Assembly: GCA_963708025.1 (NCBI GenBank)
Contig: CAVPSB010000018.1
Span: 320,001-384,000, forward strand
DNA from: an uncultured Candidatus Rokubacteria bacterium
GTDB lineage: Bacteria; Methylomirabilota; Methylomirabilia; Rokubacteriales; DASRDR01
Reading direction: 5' to 3'
Length of the DNA: 64,000 nt
In this document: piece after piece, positions 6,170-58,250 of the stretch
Layout of the letters: every line of letters begins with the position of its first letter
How positions within the stretch are numbered: the first letter of the stretch is position 1
The notes under the pieces: model-generated
Databases searched by the model: none
What the model was told of the DNA's origin: nothing
What the model saw: only the letters and a program-made list of their open reading frames with translations
Made by a program: the position numbers and the translations under genes

Positions 6170-6310
6170 GGCCCCCCCCTCCCCCAGTGCCCTCCGAGGG
6201 ACGGGACGTCGCGAGGGCCGTAGGCCCGAGCCGTCCGGGATCCGGTCAGACGGGAGGGGGGCCAAAGGCCGAAGGCCGTCGAAGGATCGGGTGGGTGGGA
6301 GGTCCCAAAC
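6170..6310. repeat. Composite palindromic repeat (gggccGTAggccc module 6196-6239; ccaaaggccGAAggccgtc module 6262-6280)
   Basis: Modules recur at 36603-36645 and at six other sites. Confidence 0.8.
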
Positions 6311-6315
6311 TAACC

Positions 6316-7254
6316 ATGGCGGACTCCGAGCTGGCACCGACCGCGGTCCCCGGCGTGACGGTGCCGGTCGGGACCTGGGTCGATTACCTCCGCCCGCTCC
6401 GCTTCGACCACTGGATCAAGAACGCCGTGGTGCCGGTGGGAAGCGTCCTGGCCCTGGCGGCCCACCGGAGCGCCCTCGACCTCGAGCTGCTCGTCAACAT
6501 CGCGCTGGCCTTCGTCATCTCCGGCGGGGTGTCCTCGGTCAACTACGCGATCAACGAGGTCCTCGACGCCCCGTTCGACACGCGGCACCCCGTCAAGCGC
6601 GACCGGCCGATCCCGTCCGGGCGGGTCCGGGTGGCGCCGCTGCTCGTGCTGACCGCGGTGCTCGGGCTTGTCACCTTCGGCGTCGCGGCGTGGCTCTTCG
6701 ACGGGCCGTTCGTCCTGGCGACGGTCGCGCTCTTCGTCGCCGGCCTCCTCTACAACCTCCCGCCGGTACGGCTCAAGGACTGGCCGTACCTGGACGCGGT
6801 GGTGGAGTCGCTGACGAACCCCATCCGCGTCGCCATCGGTTGGTACGCCGTCGCCTCGGTCCAGCTCCCGCCGCCAACCTTCCTGCTCGTCGCGGTGTGG
6901 GCGTTCGGGGCCTTCCTCATGACCGGGAAGCGCCTGGCCGAGCTGCGGCTCCTTGGCGAGACGGCGGCGCGGTACCGGCCGACCTTTGGCGCCTACTCGG
7001 TCCGGACGCTGCTCGTGATTCAGCTCGCCTACGCCGCGATGGGGCTCCTGGGGCTGGCCGCCCTGTTCGCCACCCAGCGCCCCCAGCTCCTGGGTGCCCT
7101 TCCGCTCATCGCGGTCGTGGTCGCGTGGGCCTTCAAGATGACCTTCGAGCGGGAGAGCCCGCTGATCGACCCCGAGCACCTCTATCGCCGGCCGTTCTTC
7201 CTGCTGGTCACGCTCGGGGTGTTCGCGGCCACCGTGGCGTGGGCCCTCGCGTGA
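6316..7254 (+). CDS. UbiA-family prenyltransferase, decaprenyl-phosphate phosphoribosyltransferase-like
   Basis: LRPLRFDHWIKN, SSVNYAINEVLDAPFDTRHPVKRDRPIPSG, GKRLAEL; ATG at 6316 inside the longer 4933..7254 ORF. Confidence 0.8.
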   Translation: MADSELAPTAVPGVTVPVGTWVDYLRPLRFDHWIKNAVVPVGSVLALAAHRSALDLELLVNIALAFVISGGVSSVNYAINEVLDAPFDTRHPVKRDRPIPSGRVRVAPLLVLTAVLGLVTFGVAAWLFDGPFVLATVALFVAGLLYNLPPVRLKDWPYLDAVVESLTNPIRVAIGWYAVASVQLPPPTFLLVAVWAFGAFLMTGKRLAELRLLGETAARYRPTFGAYSVRTLLVIQLAYAAMGLLGLAALFATQRPQLLGALPLIAVVVAWAFKMTFERESPLIDPEHLYRRPFFLLVTLGVFAATVAWALA

Positions 7255-9903: not shown

Positions 9904-9911
9904 GCGTCCAC

Positions 9912-10039
9912 CGGGGTTTCCCCGACTCCTCAGGTCATTGTCCTGGCATACGGCTGCCCAGTAGCCGGCTAGGATGAGCGCGGGATGGACGCTGGGCCAC
10001 GCCGCGGCAGGCCGCGCCGCTGTGGGGAGTTTACCCGAC
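9912..10039. promoter_or_regulatory. Two related imperfect palindromes, possible regulator-binding sites
   Basis: cggggtttccccgac (9912-9926) and tggggagtttacccgac (10023-10039) in the intergenic region after the NarL-type regulator. Confidence 0.35.
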
Positions 10040-10126
10040 AACGTAGGCACGTTGCCCCGGCAGACTTCCGCCAGGCCGTCGCCCTAGGATGTCGTCGTAC
10101 AGAGGCGCGCCCCTATTGGAAAAAGC

Positions 10127-13580: not shown

Positions 13581-15253
13581 CGCGCGGCACGTCGCTCCCG
13601 CCCAGGCGCCCGGAGCGTCCCCGGTCGGGCCACCGGTCGACGCGGCCTCGAGCCGGGACGACGTGGTCACCGGCGCCCGGCCGGCGCCGACGACCGAGAG
13701 GCCGGGACCCGGCCCTCGCCGGGAGTGGGCGTGGCTCGCCGTCATCCTGCTGGGGGCGCTGGCCCTGCGGGTCTACGGGCTCCGGTGGGGCCTGCCGGGG
13801 CGGATCGACCTGAACCCGGACGAGAGCACGGTGCTGGGGATCGTGGGCCGGATGAGCTGGCAGCACCTGGATCCGGGCGCGTACTTCTACGGCGGGTTCT
13901 TCTACGAGGTCTGCGTGCTGGTCCGGAGCATCCTGCGGGCCCTCCGGCCGGGCATCGGGGAGCCGAGCCTCGTCCTCGCCTACCGGGGCGTCAGCGCGCT
14001 GTTCGGCACCGCGACGGTGGCCGTGCTCTACCTGCTGCTGCGGCGGGTCGCCCCGCCGGGGCCGGCGCCGCTGCTCGGCGCCGCGTTCCTCGCGGTCATG
14101 CCGCTCCATGTCTGGGACAGTCACTTCGCGGTCACCGACGTCACGCTGACGTTCTGGATGACGGCGAGCGTCACCGCCGCCGTCTGGGCGTACCAGCGCC
14201 CGGGCTGGCTTCCGTTCGCTCTCGCGTCGGCGCTGGCCGGGTTGGCCACCGGCACGAAGTTCAACGGCGCCTTCGCCACCGTCGCCATCGCGCTGGCGGC
14301 GCTGGCGGCCCTGTGGGAGCGGCGCGTCCGCGTCGGGCAGGTTCTCGCCTGGGGCGCCCTCGGCGTGGCGGCGGCGCTGCTGGCGCTGTTCGTCGCGTCG
14401 CCGCACATGTTCCTCAAGGGGGCGGACACCTGGCGGGCCTTCCAGCACGAGATGGAGCGCGTCCACGACCTCGATTACGGCTTCAACCTGTACGTGCCCG
14501 GCTGGCAGTACAGGCCCTACGTCTACCAGTTCGGCGCCGCCTTCCCGTTCAGCTTCGGCGTGGCGCTCTACGCGGCGCTGCTCGGCGGCCTGATCTACTG
14601 CGCGGTCCGGTGGCGTCGGGTCCTGATCGTGCCGTTCGGGTACGCGGCGTTCTACCTGGGCGTCATGGGGAGCTGGGAGTTCGTCCCGATCCGCTACTAC
14701 CTGCCGTTCGAGCCCGTGCTCCTGATGGCGCCCGCGCTCGCGCTGGCGGCGGGCCTGACGGCGCCGGCCCCCCGGCTCCGGCGGTGGACGGGCGCGGCGC
14801 TGGTCCTGGTGCTCGCCTACACGGTGGCCTTCACGGTCTCCACCACCGCCCGGTTCACCGACGACACGCGGCTCCAGGCCCAGCGATGGCTCCAGCAGCG
14901 GGTGCGCGGAGGGACACGACGTTCTCACGGTGGGCGCCGAATGGTACCTGCCGGCGCCGAACGGGCCCCGGGTGACGAACCTCCTCCATGTACGGCGCGA
15001 TGCCGGGCGTACGTCGCCGAGCGTCGACCCGACTACGTGGTGCTGACCAGCCTGCACTACGCCCGCTCCTACCGGCAGCAGGACGACAACGTCGCCATGT
15101 GGGATACGGTCCGCAAGGGCGTGCTCCCGTACCGCCTCGCCGAGCGCTTCCGGGCGGAGTACCTGAACTGGCACTTCTACACGGAGGCTGGACCCGATGT
15201 ACGAGGGGTACTTCATCTCGCCGACGATCGAGGTCTATCGGCGCCTCGACTGA
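13567..15253 (+). CDS. ArnT/PMT-like GT-C membrane glycosyltransferase (frameshifts at ~14905-15185)
   Basis: ALRVYGLRWGLP, NPDE first-loop acidic motif, HVWDSHFAVTD, GLATGTKFNG, IRYYLP; C-terminus PMYEGYFISPTIEVYRRLD* in another frame. The listed ATG lies inside the MITE arm, so the start may be further downstream. Confidence 0.8.
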
Positions 15254-15259
15254 AGATCG

Positions 15260-15340
15260 TCGGGGGTCTCGCAAGCCCCCCGATTCCCCCCCTCGGAGGC
15301 CGCGGCCGTTGGACGGCCTTCGGCCTTTGGGCCGTGGCTC
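15260..15340 (-). repeat. Palindromic repeat containing the ccaaaggccGAAggccgtc module (15312-15330)
   Basis: gacggccttcggcctttgg is the reverse complement of the module. Confidence 0.8.
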
Positions 15341-15423
15341 GAAGCGGTCCGCCACGACCGCGTGGCCAGAGCCAGGCGGTTGCGAGGAGCCGCCGGGCGG
15401 CGAGAATGAGAGCCGCCCTCATG

Positions 15424-16005
15424 ACCCGCTCCGCTACCTGGTGGTCCGCAAGGCCGGCCCGGCGCTAACCGAGGAGATGCGGCCGGCATGGCGCGCGGTC
15501 CCGGAGAGCCCGACCGCCGCTCCTGCGCTTCCCGGGGACGCGCCTCGGCCATCGAGCTCGACGGAGTCAACCTCTCGCCCGACCGTCGGGGGTACAATCT
15601 GGTGGCGCTCGATCCGGCCGGGAGGCTCCTCCGGGCGTCGGCCCTCGACACGTTCCGGGCGTCGAGGTCGGCGCGGCGGCTCGCGGCGTGGGTCGCGGCG
15701 CTGCCGGCGGGGACGATCGTCGCGGGCGCGGTGCGGGACGAGGCGTCGGGCCAGCTGGCCGAGGAGGCGGTGCAGGCGCTGCGCACGCTGGGCGTGGCGG
15801 GTGACCTGCGCAGCCGGTTCCGCGAGGCCCACGCCTGCGTGGGCGTGAAGGGTGCCACGCCCGGCTCGGCGCTGGAAGCGCTGGGCTCGCGCCGGTCGAG
15901 CTGGCGTCGGAGAGCGCTCGCCGGCAGGGGAAGGGGCCCCGAGCCGGCGTGGGTCTGGAGCTGAGGGAGTTTGCGCTCGAAGCAGCGGCTGGGGTTCGTC
16001 CATGA
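15424..16005 (+). pseudogene. Deleted relic of a GT-C/ILEI paralog
   Basis: PLRYLVVR...PPLLRF joined to AIELDGVNLSPDRRGYNLVALD...AVRDEASG...GLELREFALE; no TM region, internal deletion and frameshifts. Confidence 0.75.
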
Positions 16006-16062
16006 GGCGGGCGATCGGGGCCACCCGGACCCGACGCGCCCGGCTCGGTGCCGCCCGGGGTC

Positions 16063-18768: not shown

Positions 18769-18788
18769 GGGCGCGCGGCCACCTGGCG
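18502..18788 (+). repeat. Near-identical direct repeat, copy 1 (gene tail plus next start)
   Basis: Matches 21204-21490 at offset 2702. Confidence 0.9.
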
Positions 18789-21470: not shown

Positions 21471-21490
21471 GGGCGCGGGGCCACCTGGCG
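21204..21490 (+). repeat. Near-identical direct repeat, copy 2
   Basis: Matches 18502-18788. Confidence 0.9.
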
Positions 21491-21592
21491 CTCGGGCCCC
21501 GGCCGATCGAGCTCCACGTCGGGCGCACCGAGCCGAGCGCGGTGGGACTCGAGCTGACCGGGTTCGTGCTCGAGCCGCCGGCCCCGGAATGA
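21467..21592 (+). pseudogene. 41-codon collapsed paralog (N-terminus fused to extreme C-terminus)
   Basis: MRARGHLA + LGPRPIELHVGRTEPSAVGLELTGFVLEPPAPE*. Confidence 0.8.
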
Positions 21593-21629
21593 GCTCGCGC
21601 CCGATGCCGGCCCGGCGCCCATCCGCGCG

Positions 21630-30647: not shown

Positions 30648-31900
30648 GTGGGCCGGGGGGGAGATGCGCGCTCCGCCGGACGGCCCAAGGCCGGAGGCCC
30701 CGGCCCCCCGTCCGGGGGCCCGTCCGCGATCCGCCGGGCGCTCACAGGCACGCGGTAGACCTCGACCAGCCGGCCGGCCAGCGCGGGCCAGCCGAACTCG
30801 GCGACGGCGCGGTCGCGCAGCGCCTGGCCGCGCCACTTGCGCTCGCCGGCGTCGCCGAGGAGGGCGACGCAGGCCGCGGCCAGGGCGGTCGTGTCCCCGA
30901 GCGGGACGAGGACGCCGGCCTCGCCGAGGATCTCGCGCGAGATCGGCCCGTCGTAGGCGATCGTCGGCAGGCCGGTCGGCCATGTAGTTGAGGCAGCTTG
31001 CCGTTCGCCTCGGTCGCCGAGCGCTTGGGGCTCACCGCGACGTCGCCGAGGGCGAGGTAGCGCGGGGCCTCGCGGTAGTCGATGCGGCCGGTGACGGTGA
31101 CGGAGCCGTCCAGCCCCGCCCGCGCGACGGCGTCCCGGTAGCGCGCGTCGTTCGGGTAGCCCATCAGCAGGAGGTGGGCATCCGGGACCGCGGCGACGAC
31201 CGCGGGCCAGGCCGCCAGCAGGTCGTCGACGCCCTGATACGGGGTGAGGACGCCCAGGAAGACGACCACCCGCCGGCCCTCGAGGCGGAGGGCCCGGCGC
31301 AGATCGTCGGCCGGGAGTCCCGGGCGGAAGACCTCGGGGTCCACGCCGTCCGGCAGCGCGACCACGCGATCGCCGCCGCCCCAGCGCTCGGCGAGCTCGC
31401 GCGCGAAGCTCGTGGACGACGCGAGCAGCCGGGTGGGCCCGCGCACGATCGCCCGCTCGAGGATCCGGGCCAGCGCCGGCAGGGGTCCGCGGGCGGGGAT
31501 CGTGTGGTGATCGATCAGCTCGCCGGTGAGGCTGCCCTGGAGGTCGGCGACGGCCGGCCGGCCGAAGAGGCGGCCCAGGACGGCCGCCAGGGCGGCGCCC
31601 TCGTGCAGGTGGCCGTGGACCACGTCGGGCCGGAAGCGCCGGGCCGCCCGGGCGGCCGTGATCAGGAGCAGGAGGTCGAGATACGGCTTGTGGATCGAGA
31701 AGCCGACCGGCAGTCGTGCGCACCCAGGGGAGCCGGGCGGTCCGCACGGTGCGGACCTCGGGCACGTCGCGGCCGACGTGGTAGGTGGCGACCAGGACCT
31801 CCACCGCGTGACGGCGGAGGGCGCGCACCTCCTCGAGGATGCGGACGTGGCAGCCGCGGTCGCCGAAGAACGGCGTCGGCGCCACCATCAGGACGCGCAT
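30644..31900 (-). CDS. GT4 glycosyltransferase (frameshifts near 31715 and 30985)
   Basis: MRVLMVAPTPFFGDRGCHVRI, VHGHLHEG, FLGVLTPYQG, VSPKRSATEANGK. Confidence 0.85.
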   Translation of the reverse strand: MRVLMVAPTPFFGDRGCHVRILEEVRALRRHAVEVLVATYHVGRDVPEVRTVRTARLPWVRTTAGRLLDPQAVSRPPAPDHGRPGGPALPARRGPRPPARGRRPGGRPGPPLRPAGRRRPPGQPHRRADRSPHDPRPRTPAGAGPDPRAGDRARAHPAARVVHELRARARRALGRRRSRGRAAGRRGPRGLPPGTPGRRSAPGPPPRGPAGGRLPGRPHPVSGRRRPAGGLARGRRRGPGCPPPADGLPERRALPGRRRAGGAGRLRHRHRPHRLPRGPALPRPRRRRGEPQALGDRGERQAASTTWPTGLPTIAYDGPISREILGEAGVLVPLGDTTALAAACVALLGDAGERKWRGQALRDRAVAEFGWPALAGRLVEVYRVPVSARRIADGPPDGGPGPPALGRPAERASPPRPT

Positions 31901-31989
31901 GCGGGCTCGGGCATCGACCGGGCGGACGTCGGTAGCCGGCGGGGGTCCGGCCTGTGAACTGGCCTATGGCAGATGAGTCACGTTCTCGT

Positions 31990-32072
31990 GGGCGGGGCCG
32001 AGAAGCGAGCAGCGCCCAAAGGCCGAAGGCCGTCCGAAGGACGACGTGCTGCGAAGCTCATCGGCCCCGCCC
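31990..32072 (+). repeat. Long-hairpin element, short copy A
   Basis: gggcggggccga...tcggccccgccc terminal stem enclosing the GAA module; CTAG at 32074. Confidence 0.85.
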
Positions 32073-32137
32073 GCTAGATTCCTTGAGGGCCAGAAGTCGT
32101 GCTGAATGAGTCAAGTTTCAGCAACACCGGCTCTCGT

Positions 32138-32259
32138 GGCGTGGCCGAGACCCGAGCAGCCCTAGGACGCAGGGAGTCGCCGACCGGAAGCGTACCCCGG
32201 GTACGCTGAGGATCGGCGACGACCGAGGACGACGGGATGCGACGGGTATCGGCCACGCC
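32138..32259 (+). repeat. Long-hairpin element, copy B
   Basis: Nested stems ggcgtggccga/tcggccacgcc, gtcgccga/tcggcgac, agcgtac/gtacgct; CTAG at 32261. Confidence 0.9.
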
Positions 32260-32260
32260 G

Positions 32261-34200: not shown

Positions 34201-37131
34201 TCACCAGATCCGGCCGAGGGCTCGGCTCGCGGCGTCTCCGACCGCGCTGCAGCCCGGCTCCGAGGAAGCTTCGACCACCTCGATCGTGCCAAGCTCGACG
34301 CTCGGGCTCCACGCCGGCAGGATGCCGGCGATCCAGCGGCGGAGCCGCTGCCCGGAGGCCGGACGCCAGACGCCGAGCACTATGCGGTAGGTCCCCGGGG
34401 GCGTCTCCGGCGGCACGACGACCCGCCGATGCTCCACGACGGCCTGCGGCCCCGCGGTGAGCCCGCGAATCCGCTCCGGGAGCCCATGGTCGTCGGCGAA
34501 GCGCCCGCGCTCGCCCCCGACGCGCACGAAGTGGACGTAGGCGGCGAGGCCGCTGGCGGGCTCGCGGAGCCGCCAGTGGGTAGGCGAGGTCGAGCGGCCT
34601 CGCCCGGGTGGAGGCGGCGTGGCGCGACCTGGTAGCCGACCAGCTCGACCGCGCGGCCGAAGGTCGCGGCGACCGGACGGGCCGGGGTGCCGGGCGGCCT
34701 GCGCCTCGGCCCGGAGCCGCGTCGCCTCCGCGGCGTCGCCCGCCGGCGGCGGCGACCGCGGCCCGGGCCTCGGCCAGGTCGGCGTACACGAGCTCGGGGC
34801 CGAGCCCGACGGCCAGTCGCGCGTAGATGAGCCGGGCCTCCTCGACGAGCCCGAGCCGGGCGTAGCGCGCCGCCCGCTCGGCCGGACAGCCGGCCAGGAC
34901 GTTCAGGTCACCGGCCAGCCGGAGGAACTCACGCGTAGCCCTCGGGGTCGTCGGGCGCGTCGCGCATCGCCTCGCGGTACCGCGTGAGCGCCGGCCCCGA
35001 GCGCGCCGGCTGCTTCGAGCCGGCGCCCCGCGTCGATCGCCTCGCCGGCCGGCGCCGGCCCCGGCGGCCGGTCCGAGCACGAACAGCTCCGACACCGCCC
35101 AGTTCCCCGCCGGCGCCACCTCGGTCAGCCGGAGCCGGCGCGCCTCGACCGGGCGGAAAGCGGACGGTCATCGCCCGCGTCGGCACGGCGCGGAGCGCGC
35201 CGTTCGCGCCAGAAGGGCGTGAAGCCGCCGGTCTCGACCCGGGTCACGGTGCGGGCCGGTCCCGCGCCGTCGGCGGCGTCCACGACGAGCCCCTGGACGA
35301 CGTGCTCCGGCTGGTCCGTCAGGAGCGTCAGGCCCGCGACCGCGTGGGTCTGGCCGAGGTCGACCTCGACCCAGGCCGTGCCCGGCGGCCCGGGCGCGCT
35401 CGACCAGCCCGACTCGATCTGCGTCGTCGGTCAGCGTGGCCGTCTCCCCCGTCCCGCGCTGGTGCGCACCGTCCACCCCGCGCGCGGGAGGCCGACGACG
35501 GCCGGCGGCGGCGTGAAGTCCCAGAAGAGGGTGAAGCCGCCGACCTGGCTCGCGCTGGCTCCGGACCTGGAGCATCTTGAGCCAGTTCTCGAAGAGTCGC
35601 GACGCCGCCGCGGACCAGGTGGACGGGACGGGGCGACGTCGTCCACGGCCTTCGTGTAGGGCCGGCTGCTTGTCGTTGAACGGCTCGGCGATGATGATCC
35701 GCTCGCCGGAGTCGAAGGTCAGGCGCGGGGCGACCCAGTACTCGTAGGCGTAGGCCCGGCGGAGCCCGCGCGCCTCGCAGGAAGGCGAAGAGGGCCCGGT
35801 CCTGGGCGCGCTCGGCCCGGTAGGCGGCCCGGCTCGTCCGGCCACAGCACCGTGACGTCGCGGACCAGCGGGATGCCGACGGCGACGAGGTAGGCGGCGG
35901 CGCCGGCGACGGCCACGAGGCGACTGCGGCGCCAGGTGAGCTGGCAGGCGCGCGCCAGGATGAGCGCCAGCGGCGGGGCCAGCGGGACGAGGTAGCGCGG
36001 CACCGCCAGGAAGCGGCCGTACCACACCATGCCGACGGTGATCGCCGCGGCGGCCAGCACGAGCGCCTCCCCGGCAAGCGCGGGGTCGCGCCGGAGGCGC
36101 CGCCACCCCCACAGGACCCGTACGGCGAGCAGGCGGTGGCGGCCCCCGGCCACGACCGGGATGACGAGGAAGAACGGCCACGGGAGGTACGGGCGGCGTG
36201 TTGACGTAGTCCTGGACCCCGAGGATGACCGGCAGGTGGTTGAGGAGGAGGCTCCGGGCGGCCGTCGCGGCCGGACTCCGCGCCCTGGAAGCGGACGCCG
36301 ACGTCGAAGGTGGCCCAGCCGTGGGTCAGGTTGTAGATCCAGAACGGCAGGCTGCCGAGGAGGAAGGCGCCGAGCCCGAGCCAGGCGCCGCGCCGCGGGG
36401 GAGCCCGGGATCGACGAGCAGCAGGGCGAGGGCCGCGGGGACGAGCGCGTCCACGATCTGGAAGCCGAAGTAGAGGCCGAGGCCGCCGGCCAGCCCCATC
36501 GCGACGAGCGCCCGGGCCCGGGCGGCCTCGAGGCGCGAGGCCGACAGCGGTGCCGAGGGCGTCCGACCCCCAGGTGGGGGGGGTCCAGGGGGGGGACCGC
36601 CGGAGGGACCGGACGTCCGAGGGCCGCAGGCCCGAGGCGTCCGGGCGACTCGACACTTGGGACTCCCGCCCCTGATGACAGCCGGGCGAGCCAGAGCGCG
36701 GCGCCGAGGAGGACGATCTGACCGACCAGGAGGTGCTCGATGTAGTAGGCGCGGGCGCGCACGTAGTGGGCGACGACGTACGGCGAGACGACCGTCGCGA
36801 AGAGGATCGCCAGCAGGCCGGCGCCGCGGCCGAAGAGGAGCGCGCCCGTCCGGTAGAGGGCCAGGACGAGGCCGAGGGCGGCCAGGGCCGGGACCAGGCT
36901 GAGCGCGGTGCGCGAGATGCCGAAGAGGAAGAAGGTCACGGCGGCGCCGTACGACTCGGGGATGCCGGCGTGGTGCTGGCCCCAGAAGAAGATCGGGAAC
37001 TCGCCGCGGAGGATGTGGACGCCCATCAGCCCCGTGATGGCCTGGTCGGAGTCCAGCCGGGGCGCCGCCAGGTGGAGCCCGAGGAGCAGCGCGAAGACGG
37101 CGAGGAGGGCCCAGAGCCTCCAGTCCCGCAC
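34201..37131 (-). CDS. ArnT-like GT-C glycosyltransferase with large C-terminal region (discoidin-like, TPR-like and Ig-like parts), many frameshifts, internal repeat insertion
   Basis: DSDQAITGLMG, FPIFFWGQ, GSLPFWIYN, PRYLVP, YWVAPRLTF, WVEVDLG, PPGTYRIVLGVW. Confidence 0.7.
36564..36674 (+). repeat. G-run repeat with nested gggccGCAggccc module (36603-36645), inside a CDS
   Basis: Flanks match 46499-46550; core matches 6196-6239. Confidence 0.8.
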
Positions 37132-37146
37132 TGGCTAGCGGTTGAG

Positions 37147-37292
37147 GTGCCGGGCCGAGAACCGAGCAGCCCGCACAGGCCGAAGGCCGTCCAATGGACG
37201 CAGGGCGGCGCCCACCGCAGACGTACGCCCTGGTACGTCGAGGATGGGCGCCGCCCGAGGACGACGGGATGCGACGGTTATCGGCACGGCAC
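37147..37292 (+). repeat. Long-hairpin element, copy C
   Basis: gtgccgggccga/tcggcacggcac, aaccg/cggtt, gggcggcgccca/tgggcgccgccc, gacgtac/gtacgtc; CTAG at 37135 and 37292. Confidence 0.9.
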
Positions 37293-50075: not shown

Positions 50076-51020
50076 TTAGACCCGGGATCGCCAATCCGTC
50101 AGCACGTCGGCGAGGCTCTGCTCGAGGGGAATTTCGGGCTTCCAGCCGGTCAGGGCGCGGAGGCGACCGGCGTCCCCGAGCAACAGCGGCAGATCGATGG
50201 GTCGAACGCGCTCCGGCGCCACCCGCACCTCGATGGGACGCCCGGCCAGCGCCAGGAAGGCGTCCACCACCTCGCGGATGGCGACCGCCCGCCCGGATGC
50301 CGCGTTGTAGACCTCGCCGGGCGTGGCGTGCTCGAGGCAGAGCCAGTAGGCGCGGACCATGTCCCGCACGTCGGTGAAGTCGCGGCGGGTCGTCAAGGTT
50401 CCGACCTCGAGCACGGGGGGGGCGAGCCCCTTGTCGATCGCCGCCACCTGGCGGCCGATGTCACTGCAGACGAAGCCCGGTCCCTGCCGGGGGCCGATGT
50501 GATTGAAGGCGCGCACGATCGCGATGGGCAGCCTCTCGGCCCGGACGTAGTAGGAGGCGTAGGCCTCCTGGCAGGCTTTCGAGAGCGCGTAGGGCGATAG
50601 CGGCCTCACCGGCTGGGCCTCGGTGATCGGCTGGGCGCCCTCGGGGACGGCGCCGTACAGCTCCGCCGACGAGACGAGCAGGCAGGGGGCGGGCATCGCC
50701 CGGAGCCCCTCGAAGAGCTGAAAGGTTCCTTCCAGGTTCTGGCGGAGGACGTCGGCCCGCTGGGCCCAGGACGTTCCCACCACGCTGGCTCCGGCCAGGT
50801 GGAAGACCCGGTCGGGTCGGATCTCGGCCAGCACGGCTGCCGCCTCGCCCGGCTCGGTCAGGTCGCAGGGAATGGCTTGGACGGACGTCTGGATCGCCGC
50901 CAGGTTGGTGACCGGCGCGCCGGGGAGGGTGGTCCCCACCACCTCGGCGCCTTCGTCGAGGGCCAGCCTGGCCAGGTGACTGCCGGCGAAACCCGCGATC
51001 CCGGTAATGAACACCTTCAC
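50076..51020 (-). CDS. GDP-mannose 4,6-dehydratase / GDP-4-keto-6-deoxy-mannose reductase family SDR
   Basis: ITGIAGFAGSHL, VSSAELYG, PYALSK, RAFNHIGP, RDFTDVRD. Confidence 0.88.
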   Translation of the reverse strand: MKVFITGIAGFAGSHLARLALDEGAEVVGTTLPGAPVTNLAAIQTSVQAIPCDLTEPGEAAAVLAEIRPDRVFHLAGASVVGTSWAQRADVLRQNLEGTFQLFEGLRAMPAPCLLVSSAELYGAVPEGAQPITEAQPVRPLSPYALSKACQEAYASYYVRAERLPIAIVRAFNHIGPRQGPGFVCSDIGRQVAAIDKGLAPPVLEVGTLTTRRDFTDVRDMVRAYWLCLEHATPGEVYNAASGRAVAIREVVDAFLALAGRPIEVRVAPERVRPIDLPLLLGDAGRLRALTGWKPEIPLEQSLADVLTDWRSRV

Positions 51021-51048
51021 CGGAACGCTCCTTCGACTAGAGGTCTAT

Positions 51049-51193
51049 GGGCCGGGCCGAGAACCGAGCAGCCCTAGGACGCAGGGAGTCCCCGACCGCA
51101 GGCGTACTCCTAGTACGCCGAGGATCGGGGACGACCCCAAAGGCCGAAGGCCGTCCGAACGACGACGCGATGCGACGCTCATCGGCCCCGCCC
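51049..51193 (+). repeat. Long-hairpin element, copy D (contains GAA module 51137-51155)
   Basis: gtccccga/tcggggac and ggcgtact/agtacgcc stems; CTAG at 51037. Confidence 0.9.
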
Positions 51194-51215
51194 GAGGACG
51201 AACGGATGCGAAGGC

Positions 51216-52169
51216 CTACACACGCTCACGCCAGTAGTCGAGCAGGTCCTTCATGGTCACCTCGAACGGGATCGTCGGCTGCCAGCCGGTGGCCCGCTGG
51301 AAGCGCGTGCAGTCCCCCAGCAGGACCTCGACGTCCGAGGGCCGCAGTCGGTCCGGGTCCTCGCGGACCTCGACCTGGGCGGGGGTCAGGCTCAGCAAGA
51401 TGTCGAGCACGCTCCGGACCGTGTAAGCGCGACCCGCACAGATATTGTAAACCTCGCCCGGCTCTCCGTGCTCCAGGGCCAGCCAGTAGGCGCGCACCAT
51501 GTCGCGGACGTCCGTGAAGTCCCGCGTGGCTCCCAGGTTTCCGACCCAGACCACCGGCTCCCGGCGCCCCTTCTCGATCGCCGCGATCTGGCGGGCGAAG
51601 TTCGAGGTCACGAAGACCTCGCCGCGCCGGGGACCGGTATGGTTGAACCCGCGCGTCCGCACGGCGTGCAGCCGGTGGCTCATCCAGTACTGGTAGGCCA
51701 GGTAGTCCTGCGCGACCTTCGACACGGCGTAGGGTGACAGCGGCCGGAGCGGGTTCTCCTCCCGGATCGGCACCTCGTCCTTGTGGACGAGGCCGTATTC
51801 CTCGCTGGACCCGGCGATCTGCACCCGCGTCGGGAGGCCCAGCTCGCGGATGGCCTCGAAGAGGTTGAGCTGACAGGTCAGGTTGCCGGTGATGGTCTCG
51901 CTGGGGGAGGACCAGGACGTCAGGACGTAGCTCTGCGCGGCCAGGTGGAAGATCCGATCCGGGTGGACCGCGCTCAGCATCCGGCGGACGCCGCCGGCGT
52001 CGCGGAGATCGCACTCGACGAGCCTGATCCCGTCCCGCAGGTGCTCGATGTTATCCATCCGGCTCCGCCAGCGGTGGGTGCCAACGACCTCGACGTCGCC
52101 GCGAGCCACCAGGTAGTCGGCCAGGTGGCTGCCGACGAAGCCCGTGACGCCCGTGATCAGCACTCGCAT
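51216..52169 (-). CDS. GDP-mannose 4,6-dehydratase / reductase family SDR
   Basis: ITGVTGFVGSHL, HLAAQSYV, GSSEEYG, PYAVSK, FNHTGPRRG, GNL..RDFTDVRD. Confidence 0.88.
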   Translation of the reverse strand: MRVLITGVTGFVGSHLADYLVARGDVEVVGTHRWRSRMDNIEHLRDGIRLVECDLRDAGGVRRMLSAVHPDRIFHLAAQSYVLTSWSSPSETITGNLTCQLNLFEAIRELGLPTRVQIAGSSEEYGLVHKDEVPIREENPLRPLSPYAVSKVAQDYLAYQYWMSHRLHAVRTRGFNHTGPRRGEVFVTSNFARQIAAIEKGRREPVVWVGNLGATRDFTDVRDMVRAYWLALEHGEPGEVYNICAGRAYTVRSVLDILLSLTPAQVEVREDPDRLRPSDVEVLLGDCTRFQRATGWQPTIPFEVTMKDLLDYWRERV

Positions 52170-53288: not shown

Positions 53289-55468
53289 TGCGTCGTCGCC
53301 CCGAACGCCTGGCCGAAGCCGAGCTGTCCGAGCTCTAGCAGGTTGACGGTGACGTGGAACTCGTCCTCGTTGATCCGGTCGATGAAGGCGGCGGTGATCC
53401 CCCAGCACTGCTCGCGGAAGTTCACCTCGAGCCGGTTCTCGACCACCGTCCCGCTCACGTAGTCGTAGTTGCTGGAGAACCGGACCGCCCAGCGGGGCGA
53501 GAGCCGGGCCGCCAGCTCGCCCTGGATGAACTGGAGCTCGCCCCCCACGCCGTGTCGCGTCCCGAGGGTGGCGCGGAACGCCTCCGTCACGTAGGAGGCG
53601 TCGATCGTGGCGGAGCGGACGTCCCGCTCGTACGGATCGAAGACGGCCGTCCCCCGGAACCGGAGGCCATAGACCGGCTCCAGGATCAGGTCGCCGACGA
53701 GGTCCGACAGCCGGTTGACCTTGAACGTCGTGGCGGTGCCGGGTGTGATGGGACCGGGCGGTGCCGGCAGGTTGATCCCCGAGAACGGCGACAGCAGGAA
53801 CTGATCCTCCAGGCTGTAGGTCTGGCTGAACGTGAGCCGGGCCAGCTCCCACACCCGCCCGCTGGGGAAGGCCTCGGAGGCGACGCTCCGGGCCTTGATG
53901 CGGTTGGTGAGGGAGTAGGTGAAGCTGTTCACGGGGCGAATCAGATCGATGCTGTCGTACTGCGGCAGGTCGTCCTGGTCGGTGCCGGTGCTGTAGAGGT
54001 AGCTGATCCGCGGCTCGATGGCGTGCTGGATCTTCTCGATGCCGAGGACGCCGCCCAGCTCGAACGTCCGGTAGGCGCGGGCCTCCAGGTCCACACCGGC
54101 CTCGAACAGGGAGCGGGCCGTGAACTCCTTCTCGGTGTCCTCGACCAGGAAGCCGCGGTCAACCGTGGCCCCGACCACCCGGGTGTCGTAGAGGGTCTCG
54201 CGCACGCCGATCCGGGGGGTCATCGTGAAGTATCCCCCGGGGGAGAACGGATAGGAGACGCTGGGGTGGAGGTCGAAGCGCTGGCCATTCGATCCCACGT
54301 CCCGGACGAAGTTGTTGTACGAGGTCTCCAGGTCGAACAGGATGTCGGTGCCGGCGATCCGCTGGGAGAACCCGGTCAGGCGCAGCTCGGGGAGGCGCTG
54401 CAGCTCGATCGGCTGGGTGGTGGTCAGGTCCTGATAGAAGAAGAGCCGGCCGAACAGGTTCCACTTGTCCCACCGCTGGGTCAGGGAGATGTTCGACTCG
54501 AGCCGCTGGCGACTGCGCTCGTCCAGCGTGTCGCCGAAGTCCTGGAAGAAGGTGATGTCGCTGACCCGGGCCACGTCCACCTTCAGGGTGAGCCCGGGGG
54601 TGATCAGCTCCTCGTGCCGCAGCCCGAACACTCCGCGCAGCTTGTCCTGCTCGGTGTCGTAGATCCCGAAGCCTTCCAGCTCCCCGCGGGAGGTCTCCTT
54701 CCGGATGTAGCGGTACAACGCCCCCATCGCGAGCCCGCGCTTCTCGAAGACCGTGGGGACCAGTGTGAGGTCCTGGCTGTCCGAGAGCACCAAGAAGATC
54801 GGCTGGCGATAGGTGAAGCCCTTGTCGTTGCTGGAGCCGAAGCTCGGGGTCAGGAGCCCCGACTGGCGCTCTCTCCGGAGGGTGGCGGCGAAGATCGGGA
54901 TGAACGGGATCAGCGGCACGCGGCCGACCCAGAAGGAGGCGTTGGTGCCCCAGATCCAGTCGTCGAGGTAGGCCGTGGCTTGACCCCAGCGCACGTGCCA
55001 GGCGGGCGACTCGTCCTCGCAGGTGGTGAACCAGCCCCCGGTGAGGCGGTAGGCTTTCTCGCCGAAGCGCTCCATCTTGTCGCCCCGGAAGAAGAAGTGG
55101 GGCTCGGCGGCGGCCTGCCCCTTGTACACGACTCCGGTGCCGGTGCGGAAGTTGTACTCCAGGCGCTCGCCGACGAGCCGGTCCCGGCCGTCGAAGAAGA
55201 CCACCCGCCCGACCGCCACCGCTTCCCCGGTCTCGGTGTTGACCTCGACGCGGTCGGCCTCCAGGCGCACCTCGCCCTGCTCGATCTCCACGCGGCCCTC
55301 GGCGATGAGGAGGCGCTCCCGCTCGAGGTTCTCGATGCGATCCGCGAACACCGCGACGGGCGCCTCGGGGGTGCCGAAGGTCACATCTTTGCGCTCCTGG
55401 GCCAGGACCACGGCCGGGAAGAGCGCGAGCCACGCGACGATCAGCCCGATCAGGCGCGTCCCGGGCAC
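53285..55468 (-). CDS. lptD: LPS-assembly outer-membrane protein LptD
   Basis: Signal peptide, OstA-like N-domain, FTTCE, RQSGLLTPSFG, QRLPEL, HAIEP, NSFTYSLTNR, QCWG. Confidence 0.88.
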   Translation of the reverse strand: MPGTRLIGLIVAWLALFPAVVLAQERKDVTFGTPEAPVAVFADRIENLERERLLIAEGRVEIEQGEVRLEADRVEVNTETGEAVAVGRVVFFDGRDRLVGERLEYNFRTGTGVVYKGQAAAEPHFFFRGDKMERFGEKAYRLTGGWFTTCEDESPAWHVRWGQATAYLDDWIWGTNASFWVGRVPLIPFIPIFAATLRRERQSGLLTPSFGSSNDKGFTYRQPIFLVLSDSQDLTLVPTVFEKRGLAMGALYRYIRKETSRGELEGFGIYDTEQDKLRGVFGLRHEELITPGLTLKVDVARVSDITFFQDFGDTLDERSRQRLESNISLTQRWDKWNLFGRLFFYQDLTTTQPIELQRLPELRLTGFSQRIAGTDILFDLETSYNNFVRDVGSNGQRFDLHPSVSYPFSPGGYFTMTPRIGVRETLYDTRVVGATVDRGFLVEDTEKEFTARSLFEAGVDLEARAYRTFELGGVLGIEKIQHAIEPRISYLYSTGTDQDDLPQYDSIDLIRPVNSFTYSLTNRIKARSVASEAFPSGRVWELARLTFSQTYSLEDQFLLSPFSGINLPAPPGPITPGTATTFKVNRLSDLVGDLILEPVYGLRFRGTAVFDPYERDVRSATIDASYVTEAFRATLGTRHGVGGELQFIQGELAARLSPRWAVRFSSNYDYVSGTVVENRLEVNFREQCWGITAAFIDRINEDEFHVTVNLLELGQLGFGQAFGATTQ

Positions 55469-55575
55469 CAACCCCCCTGAGTAGTCGTGTCGGTTCGGCA
55501 ATCGTGGAGCCGTAGCGCGCGAAGATCGCGGGCATCGTACCAGATGCCACGGCGAAGGCGCAACGCCTTGCGAGG

Positions 55576-55720
55576 GGGCGGGGCCGATGAGCTTCGCATC
55601 GCGTCGTCGTTCGGACGGCCTTCGGCCTTTGGGGTCGTCGCCGATCCTCGGCGTACTCGGAGTACGCCTGCGGTCGGCGACTCCCTGCGTCCTAGCGCTG
55701 CTCGCTCCTCGGCCCCGCCC
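55576..55720 (-). repeat. Long-hairpin element, copy E (contains GAA module 55614-55632)
   Basis: Reverse complement has gggcggggccga...gtcgccga..ggcgtact ccg agtacgcc..tcggcgac...tcggccccgccc. Confidence 0.9.
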
Positions 55721-55792
55721 CCCCCGGGGGGAACGTGGCTCGTCGGCCATGCTGTTGGCGCTTCGAGAGCCTGCCCGCCCGCCTGGCTGGCT

Positions 55793-56842
55793 TCAGTCCG
55801 CGTCTTCGGGCTCCGGCTCCGCTTCGAATAGGTCCCCGCTGGCCGCGCTCGGGGCCTGCCGCCGCCGGCCGGATTCCATGGCGGCGGTGGCTGGGACGGT
55901 AGGGAGCGCCGGCGCATCGAGGCCGAGCAGCCGCTTGAGGTCGAGCCCGTTCCGGACGGGGTAGTCGAGGTTGTTGTTGTTGAACGTGACCGCCACCCGG
56001 CTGGCGTGGCCGCCGAAGGCGCGGACGCGCCGGGCGATCGCCTGCATCTCGTCGGGGCCGTAGAGGTAGTCGTACTTCTCGGCCACGCTGGGCTCCTTGC
56101 CGGCCAGCTGATCGAGCCAGCCCTTGACGTTCTGACCGTGGAGACGGATGACGACCCAGCCGGGGGCCGTGGCGGCGGGGATGTAGGGCTGCCAGGGCGC
56201 GTCGAGACAGACGAAGACGAGCCCGTGGTCGGCGAGGAAGCGCAGGACCTCGTCGGCGCGCTCGGGGATCCAGGAGGCGTTCCGGAACTCGACCGCCACC
56301 GTCCAGCCCGGCAGGCGGCGCGGCAAGGAGGCCAGGTACTCGAGCGCCGCGTCCCCGTAGCGGACCCAGGGGGCGAGCTGGAAGAGGACGTAGCCGAGCT
56401 TCCCGGCCGCCGCCAGCGACGCCAGGCCCGCGCGGAACAGCTCGAAGCACCGGTCGAGCGCCTCGGCCGGGAAGCGCTCGCGCTCCACCTCGCCGCGGCG
56501 CGTCAGCGGCAGGGCCTCGGGGAGCATCAGACGGAGGTCGGCCGGCAGGCTGTCGGCGCGCGGATGGTGGCCGGTCATCAGGCTGTAGGCCTTGACGTGG
56601 AAGACGAACCCGGGCGGGGTCCGCGCCACCCAGAGCTCCGAGTTCCGGGGCGAGGGCAGGGCATAGTACGTCGCGTTGACCTCGACCACGTCGAAGAAGC
56701 GCGCGTACCAGCGGAGGCGATCCTCGGCCGACATCCGGCTCCGCGGGAAGAAGCGCCCGGAGGCGATCAGCGACCGGTCGAGCCAGGAGGCGCAGCCGAT
56801 GCGATACTCGGTCGCGCCCGTGGGCGCCGGCGCGAGCACCAC
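55793..56842 (-). CDS. DUF72-family protein
   Basis: RIGCASW, VEVNATYYALP, FVFHVKA, LFQL, AVEFR, IRLHG, YDYLY, TFNN; start uncertain (ORF open to 56908). Confidence 0.88.
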   Translation of the reverse strand: MVLAPAPTGATEYRIGCASWLDRSLIASGRFFPRSRMSAEDRLRWYARFFDVVEVNATYYALPSPRNSELWVARTPPGFVFHVKAYSLMTGHHPRADSLPADLRLMLPEALPLTRRGEVERERFPAEALDRCFELFRAGLASLAAAGKLGYVLFQLAPWVRYGDAALEYLASLPRRLPGWTVAVEFRNASWIPERADEVLRFLADHGLVFVCLDAPWQPYIPAATAPGWVVIRLHGQNVKGWLDQLAGKEPSVAEKYDYLYGPDEMQAIARRVRAFGGHASRVAVTFNNNNLDYPVRNGLDLKRLLGLDAPALPTVPATAAMESGRRRQAPSAASGDLFEAEPEPEDAD

Positions 56843-56855
56843 CGGGCTGTCGGGG

Positions 56856-58250
56856 TCAGGCGTCCGGAGGATCGAGGGCTCCCCGGGCCTCGAGCCACGC
56901 CAGGGCATCGCCGATGAGGAAGAGCGAGCCGGCGACGCAGACGACGTCGGCGGCCGGCTCCGCGAGCGCAGCGGCCAGCCCCTCGCCGACGCCGGGCGTC
57001 AGCGTGACCCGGGCCTCCAGGGGCGGAAGCGCGGCCGCCAGCTCGGCCGGCGGCGCGGCCCGCGGGTTGGTGGCCGCGGTCAGCACCACGTGCCCGGCCA
57101 GCGGCGCCAGGGCCTTCAGGATGCCGGCCCGGTCCTTGTCGGCCGAGACCCCGAGCACCAGCGTGACGCGGGCCCCCGGGAAGTAGTGGGTGAGCGAGGC
57201 GGCGAGGGCGGCGGCCCCGCCGGGGTTGTGGGCGCCGTCCAGGACGATCGTCGGTCGCGAGCCCCGTCCGGGAATGACCTGGAACCGGCCGGGCCACCGG
57301 ACCGTCGCGCACCCGGCCCGGATGGCGGCGTCGGGCAGCTCGATGCCGGCCCGCTCCGCCAGCGCGCGGACGGCGCCGACGGCGAGGACGGCGTTCCCGG
57401 GCTGGAAGCGCCCGAGCAGCGCCAGCTCGACGTCGCGGAGGGTCCAGCCGGGCCCGCCCCAGGAGGGAGCGGCGTCCCCCAAAGGCCGAAGGCCGTCGGC
57501 AGACCCGGAGGCCGGAGGCGCCGCGACCTGATGAAGATGAATTCGCTGGCCCTGGAGGTCGGAAGCGACCTCCTCGACACGGAGGTCGCGTCGCTCCACC
57601 AGGAGCGGGACGCCGAGCGCGCGGCAGCGGGCCTCGATGACCGCCATCGCCTCGGGCGGCTGGACGGCCGACAGCGCCACACCGCCGGGATTCCGGATGA
57701 TCGCCGCCTTCTCGGCGGCAATCTCCTCGAGCCGATGGCCCAGGTACTCCTGGTGGTCGTAGTCGATGCGCGTGATCACCGAGCAGAGTGCCGCCCCCAC
57801 GTTGGTCGCGTCCCAGCGCCCGCCGAGCCCCACCTCGAGCACGGCCACCTCGACGCCCGCGTCCCGGAAGGCCCCCAGCGCCACCGCCGTCATGGCCTCG
57901 AAGAAGGTGACGGCGCCGGCCTCGAGCGGGCCGGCTAGGCGCTCGACCTGCCGGGCCAGCGCCTCGCGGGTGATCACCGCGCCGTCGATCCGGATCCGCT
58001 CCGCCAGGTCGCGGAGGTGCGGCGAGGTGTAGAGGCCGGTGCGCCGGCCGGCCGCGCGGAGGATCGCTTCGGCCAGCGCCGAGACGGAGCCCTTCCCGTT
58101 GGTGCCGGCGACGTGGAGGATGCGGAGCGCGGCCTCGGGATGGTCGAGCCGGTCGAGGAGCGCCTCGATGCGCTCCAGGCCCGGCCGCATGCCGGATCGC
58201 TCGAACGGCTGGAGGCGGCGCAGGAGCCCGACGGCGGCGTCGGTCGTCAC
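56856..58250 (-). CDS. folC: Folylpolyglutamate synthase/dihydrofolate synthase
   Basis: HVAGTNGKGS, YTSPHL, LEVGLGGRWDATN, WPGRFQ, LDGAHNP, GSLFLIG; follows accD. Confidence 0.95.
   Translation of the reverse strand: MTTDAAVGLLRRLQPFERSGMRPGLERIEALLDRLDHPEAALRILHVAGTNGKGSVSALAEAILRAAGRRTGLYTSPHLRDLAERIRIDGAVITREALARQVERLAGPLEAGAVTFFEAMTAVALGAFRDAGVEVAVLEVGLGGRWDATNVGAALCSVITRIDYDHQEYLGHRLEEIAAEKAAIIRNPGGVALSAVQPPEAMAVIEARCRALGVPLLVERRDLRVEEVASDLQGQRIHLHQVAAPPASGSADGLRPLGDAAPSWGGPGWTLRDVELALLGRFQPGNAVLAVGAVRALAERAGIELPDAAIRAGCATVRWPGRFQVIPGRGSRPTIVLDGAHNPGGAAALAASLTHYFPGARVTLVLGVSADKDRAGILKALAPLAGHVVLTAATNPRAAPPAELAAALPPLEARVTLTPGVGEGLAAALAEPAADVVCVAGSLFLIGDALAWLEARGALDPPDA
57460..57530 (+). 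repeat. Palindromic element with GAA module (57479-57497) inserted in frame in folC
   Basis: cagg..gcggcg ..ccaaaggccgaaggccgtc.. ccggagg ccggagg cgccgc..cctg. Confidence 0.8.

Follow-up and report, generated by a model that had tools for sequence, protein, structure and literature searches.

Repeat elements in the analysed window

The window, a 64,000-nt stretch of a Candidatus Rokubacteria genome (8.17 Mb in a 49-contig assembly; marker completeness 99.67%, estimated contamination 8%), contained six exact copies of the 19-mer CCAAAGGCCGAAGGCCGTC, at positions 6262(+), 15312(-), 32016(+), 51137(+), 55614(-) and 57479(+), as well as one copy with two mismatches at 37173(+). Only 0.01 sites were expected, and seven or more were reached in 0 of 100 shuffles. 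This pattern search bore out all seven sites listed in an earlier, sequence-only reading of the window, which had placed the start of the variant at 37174. This 19-mer forms the core of a mini-palindrome of 21 nt, rich in GC (GGCC-GAA-GGCC with short flanks), which is composed of three GGCCNNN heptads and is referred to below as the module.

The first copy (6262..6280, plus strand, GAA loop, exact 19-mer) occupied slot 2 of a family-B-type intercistronic element (6122..6310, plus strand), which had 20 other matches in the genome and matches in the relatives G001 and G002. This element started directly after the TGA stop (6119-6121) of a PD40-repeat gene, ended 5 nt short of the ATG (6316) of a histidine-kinase gene, and consisted of a long C-run/G-run hairpin with a nested hairpin of a second family, family E (approximately 6186-6251; GTA loop 6216-6226). 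The copy at 15312-15330 lay in a 'Cluster-75' repeat element (15255..15350, minus strand), assigned by 19-mer match, context and clustering and located at the 3' tail of an open frame (13663-15468, plus strand) where coding potential was already negative.

Five elements belonged to family A. A short one (31964..32073, plus strand; exact 19-mer, context) held a single module (32016-34) and was followed by CTAG (32074-77) and by a full element with two empty module slots (32078..32260, plus strand; context, alignment); the CTAG beside the latter (32261-64) included the TAG stop of a radical-SAM gene on the minus strand. The element at 37139..37291 (plus strand) had slot 1 filled by the variant copy (37173-37191, the CACAGG form), slot 2 empty and a CTAG at each border, the right-hand one carrying the stop of a GT2 gene. 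Slot 2 was filled in the element at 51041..51196 (plus strand; exact 19-mer, alignment; module at 51137-55, CTAG at 51037-40) and in an element with a left arm at 55573..55770 (minus strand; exact 19-mer; module at 55614-32). The latter, a rare 'sense' copy, was situated between the stop of a DUF72 gene (55793) and the start of a probable lptD gene (55468). Both this copy and that at 6262, which the earlier reading assigned to coding strands, were intergenic.

The last copy (57479-97) was part of a 75-nt palindromic insertion (57456..57530, plus strand) in folC, which is encoded on the minus strand; the insertion was delimited by alignment with relatives and by metagenome contigs. In addition, 36590..36650 (plus strand) contained a GCA-loop hairpin of family E (36622-32), and 30682..30699 (plus strand) a diverged module-like sequence (GGCC-CAA-GGCC-GGA-GGCC). 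The previously noted GTA, GCA and GGA loops were confirmed at 6216 (GGCC-GTA-GGCC), 36622 (GGCC-GCA-GGCC) and 30689 (GGCC-GGA-GGCC), with C:G closure in each.

Copy number and distribution among genomes

The exact 19-mer occurred 249 times in the 8.17 Mb genome (117 plus, 132 minus). Crude gene calls, made for this analysis and covering 78% of the genome, placed 239 of these copies outside and 10 inside called genes, in agreement with the short, over-represented, extragenic GC-rich palindromes of REPIN-RAYT systems. Each of 40 relatives contained 0-1 copies, as opposed to 249 in the source genome, and a collection-wide scan returned at least five single matches, in unrelated taxa. When one mismatch was allowed in a 15-mer core, 627 copies were found in the source genome and 2-110 per genome in the sister genus g5 (n = 15; 21-110 when only the 11 genomes with a completeness of 80% or more are counted). 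Counts were 7-11 in the five remaining genera of the family and 1-10 in the remaining families of the order, and a reversed-pattern control gave 0-12. The module is thus lineage-restricted, with hundreds of copies in the source genome and tens to approximately 110 in g5.

The module as an optional unit in host repeats

Module copies filled optional slots in larger intergenic repeats of five or more families, and also lay in tandem arrays of 20-21-nt units. Single-linkage clustering of repeat contexts gave a single component, while ungapped clustering over-split family B. Lengths of the 183 family-B copies peaked at approximately 89, 110 and 131 nt, corresponding to 0, 1 and 2 modules (118, 44 and 21 copies). 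Of 193 host-anchored family-A copies, 112 had an empty slot 2, 56 a filled one and 25 another state, and the 80 full family-A loci comprised 41 with no module, 26 with one and 13 with two. Family A was found in 19 of 20 relatives from the same family, and in copies from G002 and G006 a clean 21-column gap lay precisely at slot 2, as in the empty copies of the source genome itself. Because two host families were present in sister genera without the module, with an identical, empty slot, the module was inserted later than its hosts. As these observations showed, the module behaves as a discrete unit of insertion and duplication and occupies slots of older intercistronic repeat families. The dispersed module of the earlier reading was real; what that reading had missed was its nesting in larger, transcription-oriented repeats.

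Neighbouring modules within 200 nt were in direct orientation in 151 pairs and inverted in 1, with spacings of 38, 83 and 21 nt. At two loci the rare GCA loop was common to both slots of one element, and tandem arrays were internally uniform, including one of 14 units on another contig. In g5, adjacent 10-nt units differed in copy number. Local duplication of the module in direct orientation was thus evident.

Slippage, template switching and gene conversion among hairpin-prone repeats could spread the module passively, with no dedicated machinery. Consistent with such spread are the tandem arrays, the rare loop variants shared by two slots of one element, the variable 10-nt units in g5 and the heptad composition of the module, as is its conservation, which did not differ clearly from that of its host (identity to consensus within family A of 0.92 and 0.91, respectively). 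Passive spread is nevertheless rather unlikely, since the host contexts of the module numbered five or more, unrelated to one another, and copies also occurred at a small number of unique sites across many contigs, since the 21-nt insertions were clean and their target slots shared little homology with the module, and since two genera with a FolC identity of only 66-71% have retained the same 15-mer unchanged.

A recent insertion in folC

The 75-nt palindromic element in folC was inserted in frame and added 25 residues between the Mur-ligase M and C domains. None of 11 relatives had it, and it was also missing from contigs of the soil metagenomes X1 and X7, from two studies, in which position 57455 was joined to 57535 (net -75 nt); a contig from X6 retained it. 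Because of this absence from relatives and from both soil metagenomes the insertion is recent, the module having reached folC on a small palindromic element. In this event, the sole dated one, the moving unit was 75 nt and not the bare module, and the folC allele pair represents a dated natural insertion polymorphism.

Rickettsia palindromic elements (RPE) are small palindromic repeats inserted in frame in genes, to which they contribute a peptide segment. The folC insertion resembles them as an in-frame palindromic repeat that adds a peptide, here of 25 amino acids between two domains, to a housekeeping protein. In contrast to RPE, coding insertions of the module were rare (10 of 249 copies within called genes).

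Loop sequence of the hairpin

The window contained 27 sites matching GGCCNNNGGCC, compared with 12.6 expected, a number reached in 0 of 100 shuffles. At 14 of the 27 the loop was not GNA on either strand; most of these lay within genes. A GAA site at 63159 corresponded to a coding AMP-binding motif (T-G-R-P-K-A). The earlier statement that the loop varies only as GNA thus applied to the repeat families and not to GGCC palindromes at large. A genome-wide count, which that reading had proposed as a check, yielded 634 GGCC-GAA/TTC-GGCC sites. Relative to the CNNNG expectation, enrichment was 7-fold for GAA/TTC, approximately 2-fold for GCA/TGC, approximately 1.9-fold for GTA/TAC and approximately 1.1-fold for GGA/TCC.

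Among 570 copies in module context, 549 had a G-N-A loop closed by C:G (GAA 507, GGA 29, GCA 11 and GTA 2), a count of sequences rather than of events, as loop variants were partly inherited within subfamilies. The middle base of the loop varied 38 times, whereas among the 30 commonest forms listed the loop G was changed 0 times and the loop A 6 times. GGA and GCA variants were present in several different host slots, and family E had a loop of GCA or GTA in 55 of 70 copies and in 48 of 59. If spread were passive, founder effects together with polymerase stalling at a stable hairpin could give rise to this pattern. A census of intergenic hairpins with a stem of at least 5 bp and a 3-nt loop did not reveal a genome-wide GNA rule (C-closed GNA plus TNC in 407 of 2222).

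The module shares its C(GNA)G core with the d(GNA)/d(GCGAAGC) motif: a G-N-A triloop with C:G closure on a G:C stem was found in the 549 copies mentioned above, GAA being the prevailing loop and the middle position unconstrained. d(GCGAAGC) is described as melting at 76.5 °C, as nuclease-resistant and as tolerating CC/GG stems (PMC13037366), and C:G closure as contributing approximately 2-3 kcal/mol (PMC3201870). The natural examples described in these two sources are single sites at phage and plasmid origins and in a phage promoter (PMC13037366; PMC3201870), whereas the module is a dispersed genomic repeat with a predicted hairpin and, next to the single origin and promoter sites described in PMC13037366, would constitute a population-scale genomic case. 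Nearest-neighbour folding, a model in which the extra stability term of d(GNA) is absent, gave -3.4 and -3.0 for the two DNA strands and -6.0 for both RNA strands (z approximately -1.5 to -2), and separated neither DNA from RNA nor the GAA from the TTC strand.

Orientation relative to transcription

Relative to transcription, the module strand was predominantly antisense in family A (80:12) and cluster 16 (49:4), and predominantly sense in family B (123:22). This result upheld the view that the orientation of the module itself is not tied to transcription. The host elements themselves were strongly oriented to transcription: they abutted stop codons, spanned the distance from a stop codon to the next start, and ended in the Shine-Dalgarno-like sequences GGGAGG or AAGGA.

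This arrangement of the hosts, together with the location of 194 of the 249 copies between co-directional genes (136 sense, 58 antisense) and the mRNA stabilisation described for REP sequences (PMC3184786), would fit a module that acts in RNA, as a stable stem-loop selected in polycistronic transcripts, with the DNA-level pattern as a by-product. Such a stem-loop might block 3' exonucleases or serve as a site of processing or protein binding. Since the families carry the module on opposite strands, however, an RNA role must work equally as GAA and as UUC loops. Moreover, a search of the window against Rfam at the gathering score returned 0 matches, the hairpin has no trailing T-run, and in folC the module is tolerated and translated on the antisense strand. 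An RNA role is therefore quite unlikely.

Search for a mobilising enzyme

The sequence-only reading had proposed, as examples of an agent that handles the module, a HUH transposase or a DNA-binding protein encoded elsewhere. In the 49 contigs of the source genome, profile searches returned no match to the Y1/IS200/RAYT transposase family (PF01797) and none to TnpB (PF07282). Similarly, no module lay beside IS110 (PF01548), DDE_Tnp_1 (PF01609), DDE_3 (PF13358) or IS91-like Y2 (PF04986) genes, the Y2 matches being short fragments only. All 29 genes with modules on both sides were ordinary housekeeping genes. In g5, 9 of 15 genomes had Y1_Tnp, with copy numbers of 1-2 when counted at E <= 0.001 (seven genomes with one copy, G004 with two); none of 5 genomes from the remaining genera of the family had it. 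Of six g5 Y1 loci, none had a module-like sequence, defined as the 15-mer with up to two mismatches, within 1.5 kb; the bare 11-mer lay approximately 1.2 kb from one of these loci, and genome G016 carried 73 module copies without Y1.

REP palindromes have a conserved GTAG-type tetranucleotide on their 5' side. The consensus flank of the module was CCAAA/CCACA, with no GT[AG]G and no GTAG-type head. IS200/IS605-type single-stranded DNA transposons encode TnpA (Y1) or TnpB, and their insertion orientation is biased with the replication strand. The module departs from palindrome-associated elements derived from them, as neither enzyme was found in the source genome and orientation showed no bias relative to GC skew (76:75).

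A minimal REP sequence cut and pasted as folded single-stranded DNA by a HUH Y1 enzyme of the RAYT/IS200 type, perhaps unassembled or recently lost, would account for the GNA/C:G hairpin constraint, for the hundreds of extragenic copies and for the presence of Y1_Tnp in g5, the sole other module-rich genus; a 49-contig assembly could also miss a gene. It is nonetheless very unlikely in view of the missing Y1 and TnpB at 99.67% marker completeness, the g5 loci, the Y1-free G016, the direct doublets, the GTAG-free flanks and the absence of a skew bias.

Nature of the repeat system

REP, BIME and REPIN sequences are described as short, GC-rich, imperfect palindromes with hundreds of extragenic, lineage-restricted copies, and REP/BIME as mosaic intergenic elements that contain other conserved motifs and are predicted to fold as single-stranded DNA or mRNA (PMC3116915; PMC3184786). 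The module is likewise a short GC-rich palindrome with hundreds of extragenic, lineage-restricted copies in a mosaic context. It differs in its size of 21 nt, its 4-bp stem and its nesting in older repeat families, and in that its doublets are direct (151 same orientation, 1 inverted) where those of REPINs are inverted. REPIN-RAYT systems include a Y1 gene in single copy with the repeat on its flanks; no such gene was found in the draft assembly (no PF01797 match) or at the six g5 loci.

We favour, with about even confidence, a REP/BIME-like mosaic of nested hairpins that lacks a recognisable RAYT and whose core spreads at the DNA level. Folded single-stranded DNA or an extruded cruciform, rather than RNA, would then be the form that is propagated and selected; we infer this from the GNA/C:G loop, the indifference of the module strand to transcription, and insertion at the tips or junctions of long host hairpins. 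The agent could be a structure-specific enzyme or template switching during replication. Such a REP-like expansion would bear on how these repeats move and persist, and it adds a nested repeat system from an uncultured soil lineage, in which a 21-nt hairpin sits within older, transcription-oriented intercistronic repeats on stop codons.

It is highly improbable that the 21-nt hairpin is the smallest self-propagating DNA unit described, spreading without a dedicated transposase as resistant single-stranded oligonucleotides: limit-digest products of approximately 21 nt would survive through their heat- and nuclease-resistant GNA/C:G mini-hairpin and be captured during repair of breaks at tips or junctions of palindromic repeats, where hairpin-cutting nucleases act. 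If true, such capture would account for the uniform size of the module, for its loop rule, for its lack of strand preference with regard to transcription and replication, and for its tendency to sit in the loops of older hairpin repeats.

Families A and B, as distinct from the module, resemble MITEs and mycobacterial MIRUs, being non-coding, multi-copy elements of 80-200 nt between operon genes, with a fixed orientation and short flanking direct repeats, which are candidate target-site duplications. In family B, TGA was present at the left flank in 121 and at the right flank in 90 of 183 copies, and 70 of 183 had the same 3 nt on both sides; many family-A copies had CTAG borders. In contrast to MITEs and MIRUs, no terminal inverted repeats (by inspection, the outer ends of both families were not complementary), frame-preserving mini-ORF or matching transposase was found. 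A MIRU-like ORF that overlaps the stop and start of the neighbouring genes, or read-through, was rejected for family B: lengths modulo 3 were distributed as 67, 60 and 56 over 183 copies, and only 26 of 124 ran in frame from stop to stop. One family-B consensus copy was open, in frame from TGA to TGA.

Module Copies and Loop Types

The repeat system built on the 21-nt module, a GC-rich mini-hairpin of GGCC-GAA-GGCC with short flanks, is real and well-defined. As the sequence-only reading had reported, six exact copies and one variant of a module-derived 19-mer occurred in the window, versus 0.01 expected, and hairpins with GTA, GCA, and GGA loops were located at 6216, 36622, and 30689, respectively. 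The window belongs to contig C18 of an assembly of 49 contigs and 8.17 Mb (71% GC; marker completeness 99.67%, estimated contamination 8.18%). Across this genome the 19-mer occurred exactly 249 times and the 13-mer core 546 times, and GGCC-GAA/TTC-GGCC was present at 634 sites. Another GGCC-GAA-GGCC site, at window 63159-63169, was rejected as a repeat copy; it reads T-G-R-P-K-A, an AMP-binding signature, in an acyl-CoA-ligase-type gene and was therefore classified as a coding coincidence.

Across 2678 GGCCNNNGGCC sites genome-wide, loops scored on either strand against a CNNNG expectation were enriched 24x (AAA/TTT), 7x (GAA/TTC), about 2x (GCA/TGC), about 1.9x (GTA/TAC), and about 1.1x (GGA/TCC). 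The AAA/TTT surplus is GGCC-AAA-GGCC overlapping within the same module. Loops in module contexts were GAA (507), GGA (29), GCA (11), GAG (3), GAC (3), GTA (2), GTC (2), AAA (2), and singletons (11). When copies with at most two mismatches from the 19-mer were compared, the middle loop base had changed 38 times and the loop A six times, and no change of the loop G was found among the 30 commonest changes listed. In family E, one of the intergenic repeat families, GCA and GTA loops together represented 37 + 18 of 70 hairpins of one stem form and 26 + 22 of 59 of another. In a census of perfect hairpins (stem of at least 5 bp, loop of 3 nt), C-closed GNA plus TNC loops accounted for 407 of 2222 intergenic hairpins, which indicated that the GNA rule is a property of these repeat families and not of the genome. 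The proposed restriction to GNA loops thus held in module and family E contexts and failed as a genome-wide rule.

Host Families and Nesting

Alignment of the window copies showed that they were embedded in longer repeats, and when the flanks of 543 module copies were clustered, they fell into a few host families. In family A (~125-200 nt), a long outer hairpin and a left arm are accompanied by two slots, 83 nt from each other, that may or may not hold a module; CTAG often stands at both boundaries. It occurred in the window at 31964-32073, 32078-32260 (without a module), 37139-37291, 51041-51196, and 55573-55770 (-). Full family-A loci (n = 80) carried no module in 41 cases, one in 26, and two in 13, and host-anchored counting found slot 2 empty in 112 copies, filled in 56, and classed as other in 25. 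In alignments, filled copies differed from empty ones by a clean 21-column block. A single CTAG at 32074-32077 was common to two head-to-tail family-A elements, consistent with CTAG being a target or duplicated site, and in the window the right-hand CTAG of family-A copies held the TAG stop of the radical-SAM and GT2 genes. In four soil metagenomes, summed contig depth over two family-A copies (50806-51407 and 55321-55922) was tens to ~100x that of their flanks, indicating a high repeat number of family A in those soil communities.

The left arm of family B begins immediately after TGA and its right end is GGGAGGTCCCGAAC; slot 1 lies at the tip of a 12-bp C-run/G-run hairpin and slot 2 after the G-run. 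Lengths of the 183 elements with both ends clustered near 89, 110, and 131 nt, corresponding to zero, one, and two modules (118, 44, and 21 elements). TGA preceded the left end in 121/183 and followed the right end in 90/183; in 77/183 the left TGA served as stop codon for a called gene upstream, and in many elements the next start was no more than about 20 nt from the right end. In the window, the element at 6122-6310 had its tip slot filled by a family-E hairpin with a GTA loop and slot 2 by the module. Other module contexts were cluster 16, family E, 20-21-nt tandem arrays, and cluster 75, represented at 15255-15350 (-), where the open frame at the 15312 module copy already had a negative coding score. 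An intergenic array on contig C15 (314368-314680) was built from a 21-nt variant of the module, in 11+3 units that each consist of three GGCCNNN-like heptads.

The module duplicates locally and in direct orientation: adjacent pairs were direct in 151 cases versus one inverted, at spacings of 38, 83, and 21 nt. GGA and GCA loop variants were found across several host slots; two elements had GCA in both slots and arrays were uniform within themselves, which points to local copying. Spread of the module by passive slippage or conversion is a possible explanation. On contig C13 (41596-45486), three tandem modules lay within one called 1297-aa frame with a hydantoinase/oxoprolinase-like N-terminus, explained either by insertion of an in-frame linker or by the crude caller having merged two genes.

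Orientation and Structure

Relative to genes predicted with our own codon-bias caller (6987 genes, 78% of the genome), 239 of the 249 exact 19-mers fell outside the called genes. Between co-directional genes 136 copies were sense and 58 antisense; 28 lay between convergent and 16 between divergent genes. This bias came from the hosts: the GAA strand was antisense in family A (80 versus 12 sense) and cluster 16 (49 versus 4), sense in family B (123 versus 22 antisense), and oriented 7 to 0 in cluster 75. The earlier observation that module strand is not tied to transcription was thereby confirmed. With respect to GC skew, 19-mers showed no bias (76 to 75; genes following skew, 58.8%).

The G-N-A/C:G rule, the indifference to the transcribed strand, and the insertion at hairpin tips and junctions together suggest folded DNA as the form in which the module is selected or propagated. 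The hairpin d(GCGAAGC) is described in one account as nuclease-resistant, melting at 76.5 C, and containing a sheared G:A pair, with CC/GG stems accepted (PMC13037366), and closure by C:G is credited in another with about 2-3 kcal/mol (PMC3201870). A function as RNA is a possible alternative; ViennaRNA energies (DNA -3.4 and -3.0, RNA -6.0 kcal/mol) gave no discrimination.

Search for a Partner Enzyme

Neither Y1_Tnp nor the TnpB Zn-ribbon had a match in the genome, and none of the transposase loci fetched had an adjoining hairpin. A hairpin within 1.5 kb was found at 0/6 fetched loci of seven IS110-type matches and at 0/5 DDE_Tnp_1 matches; DDE_3 gave one sub-threshold fragment; Y2_Tnp (IS91-type) gave three short fragments, none of the three near a hairpin. 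Two loci (C13:384521 and C15:73035) were copies of one IS110-family element (1288 nt, 98.7% identity) unrelated to the module. All 29 genes with modules on both sides were ordinary genes. Among relatives, Y1_Tnp was detected in 9/15 genomes of the sister genus (g5) versus 0/5 genomes of the family's other genera, at one copy in seven genomes and two in G004. Module-like sequence (15-mer, up to two mismatches) occurred within 1.5 kb of 0/6 sister-genus Y1 loci; at one (L081), the bare 11-mer lay about 1.2 kb away, and sister-genus genome G016 held 73 module copies without Y1. The proposed movement of the module as folded ssDNA by an HUH transposase was not supported, as the enzyme, inverted doublets, and strand bias were all missing.

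Among known systems, REP/BIME mosaics and REPINs come closest (PMC3116915, PMC3184786); of the four defining REPIN-RAYT features tested, three were absent from the module system. In position and flanking repeats the host families are similar to MITEs and MIRUs; they differ in having neither terminal inverted repeats nor frame-preserving ORFs. Nesting, natural folC polymorphism, genome-scale use of d(GNA) mini-hairpins, and the missing mobiliser make the system of interest.

Distribution in Relatives and Insertion in folC

The module is a lineage-restricted mini-palindrome, added later to older intercistronic repeats as an optional component. Comparisons covered 40 relatives, including G038 (flagged unpublished), on which no claim solely depends. 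Family A was found in 19/20 same-family relatives and some other families of the order, and G001 and G002 had the left portion of the B/E composite; genomes of relatives bearing family A or B/E contained no 19-mer, save one copy in G017. In alignments, slot 2 of family-A copies from G002 and G006 was empty exactly as in empty copies here. In G005 (locus L032), it was occupied by a different, longer hairpin, which makes this slot a hot spot for insertion in another genus. Copies of the 15-mer (up to one mismatch) numbered 627 in this genome, 2-110 per genome in the 15 sister-genus genomes, 7-11 in the family's other five genera, and 1-10 in the order's other families; a reversed-pattern control gave 0-12. 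In the sister genus (L047-L076; G010, G016), the host was a different element of ~55 nt, placed after a stop TGA and before the following GTG/ATG start. Direct RTGAGC repeats often flanked this element, as though it had entered junctions where stop and start overlap, and it contained one to three copies of a neighbouring 10-nt unit, CCACAGGCCG.

According to Pfam scans of its long frames, the window encodes an LPS/glycan region, lptD, folC, accD, trpA/B/C, and the acyl-CoA-ligase-type gene. Within folC, the module copy at 57479 separates the Mur-ligase M domain from the C domain, at a position where a 25-residue block was missing from 11/11 aligned relatives. Contigs of X1 and X7, soil metagenomes that come from separate studies, joined 57455 to 57535 with four letters between (net -75 nt) and otherwise differed little. 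A third metagenome (X2) showed the same net 75-nt loss and a contig of a fourth (X6) retained the insertion. Since the empty allele agrees with the relatives, the insertion is the derived state, and it remains polymorphic. The 75 nt form a palindrome with the module close to its tip and, module aside, matched the genome at just one further locus; the module rides on a small palindrome that entered folC recently. Elsewhere in the window, 16048-24290 (+) holds three tandem paralogous genes of ~2.7 kb (~900 aa) each, with 68-88% DNA identity between repeats, each terminating in an ILEI-like domain.
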